Counted from the stretch's first letter, positions 34,657-63,829 are shown. The stretch: 64,000 nucleotides of DNA from Chloroflexota bacterium (GCA_965221905.1 OZ244922.1:576001-640000); one strand, 5' to 3'. Translations and numbers: made by a program. Notes: a model not told the origin generated them from the sequence alone.

Positions 34657-36090
34657 CTAACCCAAACGAGAAGACCGGGTTGTCTTAGACCCTTTCTCTT
34701 GCCGTGTACGTGCCGCATTGAAATCCATTAGAGGATAGGGGCTGCCTGGATGTTGGCCGGGGAGGCGGGCCGGTAGGGGTTCGCCGAGGAAGCCTTCCAG
34801 ACGGGCGCGTTGCCGGGCGACGACGTCCGGGTGTTGGGCGGCCACGTCGGTGAAATTATCGCGGTCTGCGTCGATGCGATAGAGTTTCCACTGCGGATCG
34901 GATTCCTGGATATTCACCACTGCGTTCCAGGTGTGGTCGCGGACGCTCGCCTCGTAGGCCCAGACCGTGAGCGACCAATCGCGCAGCGAATCGCGCTCAC
35001 CGGTGGCGACCGGCCACATGTTTTCCCCGTCCAGGCGGTCGTGGGGCACTTCCAACCAGTCTAAGATCGTAGGCGCAACGTCGATGTGCTGCACGAATGG
35101 TGTGACTACGGTGTCTTGCGGCCCCTGCGGATGGCGCACGAGCATATTTACGCGTGTGTTGTAGGCATTCATGTGGCGCTGGCTCTTGCCGAACTCGCCG
35201 TGCTCATTCATCTGCGTGCCGTGGTCGGAGGTAAAGACGATGATGGTCTCATCCAGCAGCCCGCTGTCGGCGAGGTGATTGAGGAGCACGCCGATCCACT
35301 TGTCAATGAACGTAATCGACCCGTAGTACAACGCTTTGACCCGTTCCTGCTCCGCCGCGGTCAGCGGCTCGCCGCGCGGCTGTATCGGTTCGATGCCCGA
35401 CCACGGCTCATCCATGTAGGCGTCGGCATAGGAGAAGGGCGGGTGCCAGGGCTCGTGGGCTTCAAACGAGTCGACCCAGAGAAAGAACGGATGCTGGTCG
35501 CGGCTGTCATCGATGAATTGAATGGCCCGGCGCATGCACTTGGCGAAAGTGAAATCCTCTTCCGTCTTGCGGTCTTTCACGTTCCAGAGCCACTGGCGCA
35601 GCCCGAACGGTACATTGCCTGGATCGTGCGTATAGCGTTCGGCCTGGAGTTCCGCCTCGGTGCCTAAGCGGTAAGGGTCAGCCTCCTGGCCGCGAAAGAA
35701 TTCCCAGTTCATGAAGCCGCGCGTAAAGTTCATGGTCGGTTTGAAGAGGTGGTAGGTATCGGCTACGAGGCCCGTGGCATAGCCCGCGCGGGAGAGCCGC
35801 TCGGCCAGGGTCTGTTGGTGCGGCGGCACGCCGTGCCAGCCGGGCATCCCCGGCGCGCCCGGCGATGAGCCGGTGGTGCTAATAGTCCACCGCCAGGGGA
35901 AGCCGCGTATGCCGGTGAAGAGCGAGCGCCGCGCGGGGACCGTCGGCAACGCTTCGGCAAACGCGTTCTCAAACCAGACCCCGTCCCGCGCCATGGCGTC
36001 CAGGGTTGGCGTCTGCATGCCTGCATGAGCGCCCAGGTGGCGGATGCAGTCAGCGCGGAAGGTGTCGAGACAGATGACGATGCAGTTCAC
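34657..36090 (-). CDS. Sulfatase-like alkaline phosphatase superfamily hydrolase
   Basis: DTFRAD, TP.LD.MA..G..FENA, TVPAR..LFTG, HEPW, FTSDHG, DVAPT. Confidence 0.9.
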   Translation of the reverse strand: MNCIVICLDTFRADCIRHLGAHAGMQTPTLDAMARDGVWFENAFAEALPTVPARRSLFTGIRGFPWRWTISTTGSSPGAPGMPGWHGVPPHQQTLAERLSRAGYATGLVADTYHLFKPTMNFTRGFMNWEFFRGQEADPYRLGTEAELQAERYTHDPGNVPFGLRQWLWNVKDRKTEEDFTFAKCMRRAIQFIDDSRDQHPFFLWVDSFEAHEPWHPPFSYADAYMDEPWSGIEPIQPRGEPLTAAEQERVKALYYGSITFIDKWIGVLLNHLADSGLLDETIIVFTSDHGTQMNEHGEFGKSQRHMNAYNTRVNMLVRHPQGPQDTVVTPFVQHIDVAPTILDWLEVPHDRLDGENMWPVATGERDSLRDWSLTVWAYEASVRDHTWNAVVNIQESDPQWKLYRIDADRDNFTDVAAQHPDVVARQRARLEGFLGEPLPARLPGQHPGSPYPLMDFNAARTRQEKGSKTTRSSRLG

Positions 36091-60334: not shown

Positions 60335-60371
60335 GCCAACTGGGGGCGTGTACCAAGAGGGAAGGTGGCCC

Positions 60372-61061
60372 ATGAAGTATGAGCGGATGCTGCCGGCGGA
60401 GATCGAACAGCAATTGCAGACGCGGCCCATCGCCATTCTGCCTTGGGGCGCATTAGAGTGGCACGGCTACCACCTGGCGGTCGGACAAGACGCGTTGAAA
60501 GCGCAGGGCATCGCCGACCGCTGCGCCGAGGCGGCTGGTGCAATCTCGCTGCCGGTGGTGTGGTGCGGCTTTCAGACCATGAAGCCCCACGCGGGTTTTA
60601 AGCACACGCTGGAGTTCCGCGATGAGACCGTGCGCACGTTGGCGCGCGAGTACTTGGAGCAACTGGACGATGAAGGCTTCAAGGTCATCGTCATCATCAC
60701 CGGGCACTACGGACCTCTGCACGTGCGCGCGCTCAAGGAGGTGGGCGAGTGGTATCAGCAGCAGCATCCCCACCTACAGGTCTGGGTGCTGGCGGAGTAT
60801 GAGGTGGTGAAAGACCTCGGGTACACGGGCGATCATGCCGCGAAATGGGAGACCTCGATCTTCTGGCACCTGCATCCTGAACTCACCGACATCAGCCGCT
60901 ACCGCACGGACCTCACCATGAAAGAGCAAGGCGTCGGCGGTGAAGACCCGTCTGTGCACGCTTCACCCGAGCTCGGTGAGATGATTGTGAATGCAATCGC
61001 TGAGCGGGTGGCCGCGCGCTGCGGCGAGTTGCTGGCTGAGGTGCAGAGAGTTGCTAGCTGA
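60372..61061 (+). CDS. Creatininase family protein
   Basis: P.GALEWHG.HL..G.D, GHYG, DHAAKWETS. Confidence 0.9.
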   Translation: MKYERMLPAEIEQQLQTRPIAILPWGALEWHGYHLAVGQDALKAQGIADRCAEAAGAISLPVVWCGFQTMKPHAGFKHTLEFRDETVRTLAREYLEQLDDEGFKVIVIITGHYGPLHVRALKEVGEWYQQQHPHLQVWVLAEYEVVKDLGYTGDHAAKWETSIFWHLHPELTDISRYRTDLTMKEQGVGGEDPSVHASPELGEMIVNAIAERVAARCGELLAEVQRVAS

Positions 61062-61199
61062 CGTGCAGATTCCGGAAGGTGAAGCGATCTCGCGTAGAGT
61101 GGGAAGACGCGGATGAGAGAACCTGGCGGTGAATTCTAAGGGTGCGGGATTAACTAGGCTCCGTTCATCCTTCGACAGGCTCAGAAACTGTCTTGGGTG

Positions 61200-62153
<954 letters not shown>

Positions 62154-62164
62154 CTATGGCTGGC

Positions 62165-62320
62165 GCTCCCATGCAGTCCCTGCCTTACGGATACGGACTT
62201 CGTGTCCCGGTAACTGTTCGGGCTCTGGGGGAGCTCGGCAGGTGTGGCGACCACTCTGAGCCACGGTCTGCCAGACCTAGGACGAACCGGTCTGCCACGC
62301 CTGCTCCCATTCTATCTCCC
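62165..62320 (-). ncRNA. IS110 bridge RNA with target- and donor-binding loops (ends approximate)
   Basis: Stem 62238-62248/62294-62304 encloses guides matching both target arms; a second stem-loop holds guides matching the donor junction. Confidence 0.82.
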
Positions 62321-62367
62321 TTTTCCAAGATATAAGGACGAACGGAGTCTGGTTCTCCTGGAAGGCT

Positions 62368-62505
62368 GTAGGGGCGGTTCGCGAACCGCCCCTACAGCCT
62401 TCCAATTTTCACCTAATGGGGTGTAAATTTATTGGGGTGTATATTGGTCCGTTTGTGGTGAGCGCTTCGATTAGCTCAGCAAAGGCTTGTCGAACCATGA
62501 ACGGC
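62368..62505. repeat. REP elements beside the IS110
   Basis: GTAGGGGCGGTTCGCGAACCGCCCCTAC palindrome and a CCGTTTGTGGTGAGC...GTCGAACCATGAACGG copy. Confidence 0.75.
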
Positions 62506-62617: not shown

Positions 62618-63142
62618 CTACAGCCCGCCCCCGCAGGTGTTGGCGGCCCACAGCCCTCGTCCTACGGCGCGCGCCTCTGCCTCCGCCGCTTGGAACATCT
62701 GCTGGTACCGGTACGGCACACTGTACGTGAACTCCCGCGCGTAGCCCTGGCGAACCATCCACTCGTTGAAGAGCACGTCGCCCACCCACACGAACGCCAG
62801 CAGCCGGTCGTAACGATCGCGCCGGCCTTGCGACGCGTCGAATTCCAAGCGCACCGCCTTTCCAGCGAGCAACTCCTTGGCCTTGGCGCTGGCTTCAGGG
62901 CCAAAGCACTGTACGGGCCTCCCCGGCGCATTCGTTTCCGGCGCGTCTATGCCGATCAAGCGCACAGACTCGACTACGCCACGCATGCGTACTTTGATAG
63001 TATCGCCGTCCACAACCGAGACAATGGGGGAGGTACCGTCTGGATTGCCACACGTCCGCTGCGCTACAACAGCAATGAGTAGCGCGATAGTGAGAAGGAC
63101 AAGAGTGCGCCCGCGCAAAATGCCCCTCACGCGCCTCCTCAT
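62618..63142 (-). CDS. Thermonuclease (SNase-like) with N-terminal membrane/signal segment
   Basis: VVDGDTI, VRLIGIDAPE, DRYDRLLA.V, GRGLW. Confidence 0.92.
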   Translation of the reverse strand: MRRRVRGILRGRTLVLLTIALLIAVVAQRTCGNPDGTSPIVSVVDGDTIKVRMRGVVESVRLIGIDAPETNAPGRPVQCFGPEASAKAKELLAGKAVRLEFDASQGRRDRYDRLLAFVWVGDVLFNEWMVRQGYAREFTYSVPYRYQQMFQAAEAEARAVGRGLWAANTCGGGL

Positions 63143-63829
63143 ATAACGCCGCCTGCGTGCCTTCAGCAACTTTCAAGCCTCCCACCACAGATATTCAATT
63201 GCCAATAGTAGCAGCAATGTGCAGAAGTGGCATGAATGGGCACCGCAAGCCCCGGTTAGATTCACCATCTGTGGAAAGGGAGTTGCAAACGAGGGCACCG
63301 ACCCCGCGCAAGCCCCGCCACTGGTCGAGTGTACTCCGCATCCTGTGGAAACGCTGGTGTAGCCGCCCACTCGCCTTATGCCATGAGATAGGGCCTCGAG
63401 CTTTATACTTCAGTTGAGAATCCCTACTGGCAGTCTCTAGAGTCTTGCCATGCCAAGAAGCCCAGTACGCCGGCGAGACTTTACACCGCGATTTCCAAAG
63501 TGCTACCGTAAAGATTGAGCAATACTACAACAAATGAAGTAATGCGGCGGCGTCACAGGCGGGAGTCGGCGTGGCGCGCCGCAAGGGACGGGGCTCTTGG
63601 CTTTCCCAATGGATACCTTTGCACAACTTGGGTCGAATGTGCAGAGTCCCCTCTCCCTCAATGGAAAGGGCTAGAGCCTGCCCCGTACTTGATACGGGGG
63701 TGAGGATGGACTCTATCCATTACCCTTCGATCCTGCCCGCTTAGTTGAGATGTGCAAAGGTCGCCAAAGAGACTGTTTCCCACCAGTATCATACTTTCGG
63801 CAAGTACAAGAATTGAGAGGCTTTAGAAC

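Follow-up and report, generated by a model that had tools for sequence, protein, structure and literature searches.

The 64,000-nucleotide stretch of a Chloroflexota genome analysed here (referred to as the window; positions are counted from its first letter) contains an insertion sequence (IS) lodged inside a hairpin-forming repeat, and the question it raises is how that site was chosen. Insertion sequences of the IS110 class that use a bridge RNA have been known since 2024. The explanation favoured here, with a probability of roughly 0.9, is that the window carries a recently active IS110-group element that would choose its insertion site via a bridge RNA that its own left end encodes. This reading is drawn from the observed anatomy of the element, the homology of its protein, the occupancy of sites in its genome, and the covariation of guides with flanks and of helices among relatives.

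Anatomy of the Element and Its Recombinase

The main features of the element are listed below.

61183-62336, minus strand: whole IS110-group element, with the CT core at each end (62336-62335 and 61184-61183)
62136-62334, minus strand: left end, predicted bridge-RNA region, 199 nt, non-coding
62138-62147, minus strand: purine-rich AGGAGGGAGG, adjoining the start of the recombinase gene
61200-62135, minus strand: recombinase gene, 311 aa, the element's one open reading frame (ORF)
61185-61199, minus strand: right non-coding end, from stop codon to core, 15 nt

Counted with one core, the element is a unit of 1152 bp. Six copies were found in the genome, which are 100% identical across the element save for one base in a single copy, and their identity stops exactly at the 61183/62336 boundaries. 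All six carry CT at both ends, empty sites have a single CT, and a longer target duplication is absent. Furthermore, the left non-coding end (199 nt) is far longer than the right one (15 nt) and is the end that holds the structured RNA, an arrangement reported to distinguish the IS110 group from IS1111 (PMC11208160). One contig from a DNA sequencing run fuses 61182 to 62335, skipping 1152 bases with two letters shared; one of its sides is only 20 letters long, and it possibly represents another empty copy of the REP repeat. The IS itself occupies an intergenic repeat between a 183-aa ORF that adjoins the insertion (62618-63169, minus strand) and a 237-aa ORF on its other side (60348-61061, plus strand).

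The single gene product matches both domains of this recombinase family, DEDD_Tnp_IS110 (PF01548; 2.7e-21, 76.4 bits, cut-off 29) and Transposase_20 (PF02371; 1.7e-19, 70.4 bits, cut-off 21.3). A search against solved structures returned two matches only, ISCro4 (PDB 9t56, 1.6e-44) and IS621 (8wt6, 2.4e-42), both aligned over residues 4-305. The N-terminal part is a RuvC-like DEDD domain with its D, E, D and D residues in place, and S232-G233 stands opposite S241-G242 of IS621, at the position of the catalytic serine. Altogether D8, E52, D94, D97 and S232 align with D11, E60, D102, D105 and S241 of IS621, which are reported to form a composite active site in which mutation of any one residue abolishes recombination (PMC11208158). 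The earlier note had described an intact, compact recombinase of 311 aa. An open reading frame with all catalytic residues agrees with the first adjective; the second hardly applies, the protein being just ~15 residues shorter than IS621 (326). The exact protein is present in public collections in a 13-member cluster, of which no member (0/13) carries a name. By every sequence-level feature examined, the element is a member of the IS110 group.

Predicted Bridge RNA and Its Scaffold

Two stem-loops were identified in the left end, each with a pair of guide-like strings.

62238-62304, minus strand: target-binding stem-loop, with an 11-pair outer stem, bulged A, 4-bp inner stem, internal loop and top hairpin
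62279-62287, minus strand: left target guide GUUCGUCCU (DNA GTTCGTCCT), equal to left target plus core in the top-strand sense, 9/9 match to the flank
62265-62277, minus strand: small hairpin GGTCT-GGC-AGACC between the target guides
62256-62262, minus strand: right target guide GGCUCAG (DNA GGCTCAG), reverse complement of CT+GAGCC, 7/7
62175-62224, minus strand: donor-binding stem-loop, with stem AGCCC/GGG-CU, internal loop and top hairpin (62207-62195)
62210-62217, minus strand: left donor guide ACAGUUAC (DNA ACAGTTAC), facing the right-end terminus ACAGTTT-CT
62184-62188, minus strand: right donor guide GUAAG (DNA GTAAG), facing CT-TAT of the left-end terminus; five positions, one G-T wobble

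Every string named in the earlier note was recovered on the minus strand at its position, and the 11-pair stem it had placed around the target guides is formed by GCAGGCGTGGC (62304-62294) and GCCACACCTGC (62248-62238) with one C-A mismatch, followed inwards by the bulged A and the 4-bp stem GACC/GGTC. The left donor guide agrees with its terminus at 7/8 positions (six contiguous), the mismatch falling at left-donor position 7; together with the G-T wobble of the right donor guide, this reproduces the imperfect donor-junction match previously claimed. The two-loop layout with a CT core in each guide, as described for IS621, is likewise present: the 5' sides of the two internal loops are sense, and the 3' sides complementary, to the target or donor junction, core included. 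In IS621, the reported pairing partner of the left guides is the bottom strand and that of the right guides the top strand, with the core in all four pairings (PMC11208160). The chance expectation in a 199-nt end is ~7e-4 for the exact 9-mer and ~0.012 for the 7-mer (our own arithmetic, assuming uniform bases).

Folding 62136-62334 had been proposed as a check, and as a single sequence the region did not fold better than its shuffles (z = -1.44; 20 of 200 shuffles folded at least as well). In the minimum free energy fold, the two target guides partly pair with each other across the small hairpin, and the two donor guides do likewise. Given that the single-sequence fold is not significant, the RNA structure rests on comparative evidence. 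A covariance model was built from the window and its relative L008 (82% protein identity) using a structure drawn by us. This model (R1) matches the window's minus strand at 62171-62304 with 169.4 bits, and in distant loci it matches RNA upstream of the recombinase gene. Matches were found in 31 of 61 related genomes, the window's own included, and in 8 of 16 other genomes of the same genus, where copies per genome range from 0 to 17.

The scaffold was then assessed in an alignment of 31 rows, one locus per genome, in which 93.1% of 883 cells are standard pairs and 16 of the 29 pairs have changed on both sides; these counts lean towards the structure, since the alignments were fitted to our own model and the rows are related rather than independent. 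Helices 1-3 of the target loop are paired at 96.2%, 96.8% and 89.7% (both-side changes in 11 of 20 pairs), and helices 4 and 5 of the donor loop at 84.6% and 95.0%. On four of five measures, none of 500 shuffles reached the observed value, and the fifth (further pair types) was reached by 69 of 500; controls with slid partners gave 32-49% pairing. Six distant rows alone had 165 of 170 cells paired and compensatory changes at 19 of 29 pairs, the slid controls giving 27-48%.

Other alignments were set aside in whole or in part. When 15 orthologues were aligned with plain MAFFT, RNAalifold returned only nine pairs (-2.15 kcal/mol), because MAFFT had misaligned the 3' strands, and a second MAFFT alignment was equally faulty. 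Alignment A4 included five spurious rows (three antisense matches to the target loop, an unrelated match at window 35814-35896, and one in L033) and aligned its Acidobacteriaceae rows inconsistently, and only six of its rows were used.

Target Site and Its Occupancy

The target is split by the element into two halves of a REP-like hairpin.

62337-62343, minus strand: left target half GTTCGTC, part of CCGTTCGTCCT (62345-62335), which belongs to the 5' arm of the REP-like hairpin
61161-61182, minus strand: right target half GAGCC (61182-61178) and the remainder of the REP-like hairpin, TGTCGAAGGATGAACGG

On the element strand, the left flank reads CCGTTCGTC-CT and is followed by TATAT inside the element, while the right element end reads ACAGTTT-CT and is followed by GAGCC, the right flank being GAGCCTGTCGAAGGATGAACGG. 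Joined together, CCGTTCGTCCT and GAGCCTGTCGAAGGATGAACGG make an imperfect palindrome of 33 nt. With DNA parameters it folds at -8.6 kcal/mol into a stem of 11 bp that closes a loop of 11 nt, and the CT core forms the final two bases of the 5' stem arm, i.e., the stem/loop junction. The empty target given in the earlier note exists in the genome: uninterrupted CCGTTCGTCCTGAGCCTGTCGAAGGATGAA.. copies adjoin two of the six insertions. The exact 14-mer GTTCGTCCTGAGCC has 10 uninterrupted occurrences against 0.04 expected from base composition, and it belongs to a large repeat family, with 335 uninterrupted sites at two differences or fewer and 767 at three or fewer.

A natural specificity for a host REP family had been proposed, with copies at unrelated sites named as the observation that would count against it. 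In the genome (a single contig of 3.52 Mb) all six copies sit in the predicted site, within one hairpin and in identical register. Four lie in GTTCGTC-CT-GAGCC and two in a variant with T>C, where an rU:dG wobble would result. Compared over 1166 bases, the copies show two kinds of difference, namely the flank base T/C at left-target position 6 (two copies) and one C>T in a single copy, at the equivalent of window 62202, a loop base of the top hairpin in the donor stem-loop. The outer flanks differ among copies, which indicates separate insertions. Occupancy was counted by site class; totals include the occupied sites, and the wobble classes follow our own rule.

Perfect match: 4 occupied, 14 in total
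One wobble-compatible difference: 2 occupied, 62 in total
One true mismatch: 0 occupied, 71 in total
Two to three differences: 0 occupied, 626 in total

Perfect sites differ in occupancy from all others (Fisher, p = 1e-6), as do perfect and wobble sites together from true mismatches (Fisher, p = 1.2e-5). The commonest variant, GTTCGTGCTGAGCC, which places C opposite C in the guide, is present in 52 copies and holds zero insertions. If the guide reading is true, a target variant beginning GTTCGTGCT is expected to show no recombination.

The same six copies could be old, left by an element that is a bridge-RNA IS by descent and has lost its mobility in its own genome. The imperfect pairing of the donor guides with the junction would fit such a loss, and no circle junction is listed among the contigs of four sequencing runs, a contig-level result that is not evidence of absence. 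Yet the copies are identical over 1152 bp save one base, the reading frame is open with its catalytic residues complete, and copy number varies from 0 to 17 across genomes of the same genus. The donor mismatch at position 7 occurs in all five guide pairs of the subfamily, including that of the 17-copy genome, and is thus compatible with spread. Loss of mobility is therefore considered very improbable, and a recently active element is preferred.

Covariation of Guides and Flanks in Relatives

A protein-based scan with one genome per species gave 43 loci. The best were in two Chloroflexota metagenome-assembled genomes (MAGs; 99% and 82% protein identity), followed by a Burkholderiales MAG (56%), a Planctomycetota MAG (53%), a Tepidisphaeraceae MAG (44%) and many Acidobacteriaceae (34-41%). 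Guides and flanks in individual loci are given below.

L008: left guide GTTCGCCCT, left flank GTTCGCCCT; T>C relative to the window on both sides
L009: left guide and flank ATTCCCCT; right CTCCTGC
L010: left guide and flank CATCCT; right CTACCG
L011: left guide and flank GTGCCT; right CTCCGTG
Acidobacteriaceae group: left guide and flank TCATCCT; right CTGAGCG
L047: left guide and flank GCCTGTCCT; right end outside the locus

Close to the window, L008 (82% identity) and L057 have the left guide GUUCGCCCU beside a GTTCGCCCT flank, and L060 combines the right guide AGCUCAG (G>A) with a CT-GAGCT flank (GAGCC>GAGCT). At greater distance (34-56% identity), the guides of L009, L010, L011, L047 and the Acidobacteriaceae group fit their own, quite different flanks and termini; within that last group, L037 and L040 have TCATTCT in guide and flank alike. 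Clear compensatory cases with unrelated targets are L061, L065, L073, L081, L082 and L085. The left flank fits poorly in L074, L076, L077, L079 and L084 (2-5/9 positions) and in L069 (5/9).

The covariation check suggested in the earlier note was carried out with guides taken from fixed alignment columns and element ends located by conserved terminal motifs, independently of the guides. Both ends were present in 21 of the 31 rows, and removal of three duplicate guide pairs left 18. The ten rows left out were L064, L069, L072, L076, L077, L078, L083, L084, a second match in L080 and a truncated second match in L067; rows with probably wrong boundaries (L066 and the first L080 match) were retained, which biases against the result. 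With 12 non-core positions each, the 18 distinct guide pairs are identical to their own flanks at 171 of 216 positions. Permuted pairings gave 91.3 +/- 8.5 with a maximum of 131, and none of 20,000 reached 171. At least 10 different target sequences are represented among the 18 pairs. The column-fixed test replaced a position-free table of longest common substrings, which was noisy and whose best matches lay partly outside the guide positions (L010, L011, L016).

Donor guides behave in a similar manner. The left donor guides ACAGTTG, ACAGGTG, ACAATTG and ACCGTTG of relatives each have an identical right-end terminus, and the right donor guide is GUAAG opposite CT-TAT, and GCAAG or ACAAG opposite CT-TGT (left end TGTAT). 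In the subfamily of the window, ACAGTTA is always opposite ACAGTTT, an A/T mismatch in 5/5 guide pairs; the affected left-donor position 7 is reported to be the donor position of IS621 that tolerates mismatches best (PMC11208160).

It could be argued that the guide-like strings are passive, either as remnants of captured targets or as terminal sites that the protein recognises in the DNA itself, unaided by an RNA guide. Recombinases that read a DNA site directly are common, the strings are short (9, 7, 8 and 5 nt), and contigs of the RNA libraries (contigs only) show no left-end RNA. This account is the least probable of those weighed. A captured site is not expected to have one arm sense and the other antisense with a conserved hairpin between them, and the strings occupy internal loops of helices maintained by compensatory changes. 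They also co-vary with unrelated targets across the 18 guide pairs, and the homologous IS621 has been reported to be RNA-guided on experimental grounds (PMC11208160, PMC11208158). Guidance by a bridge RNA is the reading retained.

Promoter, Transcription and Strand

A predicted promoter is divided between the two ends of the element.

61198-61203, minus strand: TTGACA, predicted -35, located in the right end; it overlaps the stop codon and precedes the end of the core by 15 nt
62327-62332, minus strand: TATCTT, predicted -10, two bases into the left end

The sequence TTGACA-N17-TATCTT is complete only across the circle junction, where the right end meets the left end, and the integrated context (61100-62450) has no sigma-70-like site on either strand. 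Among the 11 distinct ortholog ends listed, eight have TTGACA, TTGACT, TTGAAA or TTGACC at the equal offset; the -35-like hexamer is one base off in L013 and L015 and absent in L009. Excision of IS621 is reported to reconstitute a sigma-70 promoter across the junction that drives an RNA of ~177 nt (PMC11208160).

A mechanism can thus be proposed for the element in the window. On excision, the two ends of the element would meet at the CT core, and the circle junction would complete the TTGACA-N17-TATCTT promoter, from which the left end would be transcribed in the same sense as the recombinase gene. The RNA would fold into two stem-loops, each with an internal loop; both guides of the first (target) loop would take in the CT core, and those of the second, ACAGUUAC and GUAAG, would hold the circle junction ACAGTTT-CT-TATAT likewise. 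A tetramer of the 311-aa DEDD/Ser recombinase would then exchange strands at CT, and the element would come to lie where the 5' stem arm of the REP-like hairpin meets its loop, with CCGTTCGTCCT on one side and GAGCCTGTCGAAGGATGAACGG on the other. For transcription, the strand and ends of the RNA, its binding to the protein and the chemistry, this scheme is modelled on IS621 by homology.

Two metatranscriptome runs contain 0.35-0.40 of the sampled words. RNA-library contigs fall on 61199-61537 and 61700-62095 (parts of the ORF at depth 3-5, possibly DNA carry-over) and on a palindrome at ~62362-62398. None covers 62136-62334, a contig-level result that speaks for neither the presence nor the absence of RNA.

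The strand of the RNA deserves separate attention, given that no Rfam family reaches its threshold for the left end and that the only notable match, sX15 (RF02234), lies on the plus strand. At 62158-62313 it spans the whole model (E = 1.6e-5), although its 43.9 bits fall below the gathering score of 55, and in score and strand the left end does not qualify as a member of sX15. The functional RNA could accordingly be an sX15-like transcript of the plus strand, antisense to the recombinase gene, with guides that pair with the opposite DNA strands or with a role as an antisense regulator. The reverse complement preserves every helix and guide complementarity, and northern blots in Xanthomonas are reported to detect both sX15 and its complement asX7 (PMC3300014). 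Counts of G-U against A-C cells (22 and 28 over all helices, 22 and 18 without helix 4) favour neither strand, and the assignment instead follows from how IS621 is laid out and from which way the junction promoter points. The order known from IS621, in which the target loop precedes the donor loop and the left guide, ending in CU, precedes the top hairpin, occurs only on the minus strand. The junction promoter is directed along the minus strand, and the integrated state has no promoter-like site on either strand. Moreover, in our reading, the sX15 consensus has AG right after its hairpin and CU some bases before it, as the complement of a bridge RNA would be expected to have. A plus-strand RNA is therefore regarded as very improbable, and a bridge RNA in the sense of the recombinase gene is preferred.

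Relation to Known Systems

The element resembles IS621 of Escherichia coli in many respects. The recombinases align over their full length (E = 2.4e-42) and share five catalytic residues; the core is CT, the 14-bp target has the format 7+2+5 and the natural target is a REP hairpin; the target loop precedes the donor loop in the left end; the donor termini are similar (ACAG..-CT-T.TAT); and the promoter is predicted to be completed at the circle junction. Natural targets also appear to tolerate one wobble position in both, rG:dT being the one reported for IS621 (PMC11208160). Unlike IS621, the element resides in another phylum, with Chloroflexota MAGs as its nearest named records, and is known from sequence alone. 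Its protein is 311 rather than 326 aa long, its target sequence is different, its left end (199 nt) lacks a 5' stem-loop of appreciable size before the target loop, and its mismatch at left-donor position 7 is conserved. ISCro4 (PDB 9t56), compared by protein sequence only, is the best solved-structure match (1.6e-44, residues 4-305).

Several IS110 copies all placed in one REP or intergenic stem-loop are also reported for ISPpu9 and ISPpu10 of Pseudomonas putida (PMC12288879; 10.64898/2026.03.19.712850), and for ISPpu10 the target stem-loop is reported to add specificity beyond base pairing (10.64898/2026.03.19.712850). In contrast to these, the hairpin targeted by the window element has the core where its own stem passes into its loop. 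A similarity in shape links the element to sX15 (RF02234), a small RNA of Xanthomonadaceae, which shares the two-hairpin form and many conserved scaffold bases and aligns over its whole model, although the match falls short of the gathering score and runs antisense to the recombinase gene. The sX15/asX7 pair is described as plasmid-borne, with 10 homologues in Stenotrophomonas maltophilia K279a (PMC3300014), which suggests a mobile element; sX15 would then appear to be the complement of an IS110 bridge RNA.

REP-targeting bridge-RNA elements of the IS110 group are the founding examples of the class, and the window element adds no new mechanism. In the literature on IS110, Chloroflexota and bridge RNA, no description of such an element in this phylum was found, and one preprint (10.64898/2026.10.21.760802) mentions Chloroflexota once; the orthologue tables of PMC11208160, which list thousands, may already include it. 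What makes it valuable is the unusual completeness of the natural data that it offers on a system now under development as a genome-editing tool. The orthologue (311 aa) is intact and comes from a phylum distant from those characterised so far, and it is accompanied by a known 14-bp native target, by close relatives with a shared scaffold and different guides, and by an in-genome specificity profile in which perfect sites are favoured over wobble sites and mismatched sites have no insertions. Such data could be used to select and benchmark new bridge recombinases and to follow how IS110 elements track REP families in their hosts.

A further suggestion, offered as a tentative one that is more doubtful than probable, is that one and the same bridge-RNA scaffold has repeatedly been redirected in nature to different genomic repeats within one genus and class (apparently Chloroflexota), and that the REP subfamily with its rU:dG variant, the position-7 mismatch and a tandem repeat in the L080 relative are possibly functional features of the lineage. 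If true, the lineage is a natural experiment on the co-evolution of guides, host repeats and half-match events.

Further Observations

The tandem in question was seen in the relative G025 (L080, reverse complement, ~446-541), where the first 48 nt of the left end are duplicated. The 48-nt unit runs from the terminus to the end of the left target guide CAATCCCCT, and the second unit begins right after the CT of the guide in the first. It looks like recombination into guide-encoding DNA that matched the left half of the target only, i.e., a natural product of half-site recombination, and would fit the "half-match" events reported in 10.64898/2026.08.31.748434.

A second guide variant co-occurs in the sample of DNA run X5. 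In that run, a 99-base contig (depth 8.5) covering window 62223-62321 carries a variant target loop, with T>C in the left guide at 62282 (element strand), G>A in the right guide at 62262 and GGC>GCA in the loop at 62270-62271. These are the guides of a relative of the G006/L060 type, whose sites read GTTCGCC-CT-GAGCT.

Apart from the six copies, the genome of the element has no intact IS110-family gene, and the RNA model matches no solo copy of the bridge RNA. A degenerate IS110-family fragment (37.9 bits, two in-frame TGA codons) lies outside the window at G000:C1:352624-352932, and no match to the RNA model occurs beside it. Outside the window, a 168-aa open frame at G000:C1:3327899-3328216 has a Y1_Tnp match (PF01797) above the cut-off, and this gene could be a REP-associated tyrosine transposase that maintains the repeat family targeted by the IS.

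Just beyond the element, window 62362-62402 is a GC-rich near-perfect palindrome, GGCTGTAGGGGCGGTTCGCGAACCGCCCCTACAGCC, whose 20-base centre occurs 11 times in the genome and which gave spurious matches to microRNA families in Rfam. Contigs of all four runs pile up on it to a very high summed depth, which points to a second repeat family. A further hairpin-type repeat, running from CCGTTCATGGTTCGACAAGCC to GAAGCGCTCACCACAAACGG with arms related to the target repeat, lies at window 62450-62505 on the minus strand, and a copy similar to it adjoins the insertion at G000:1011496-1012661.
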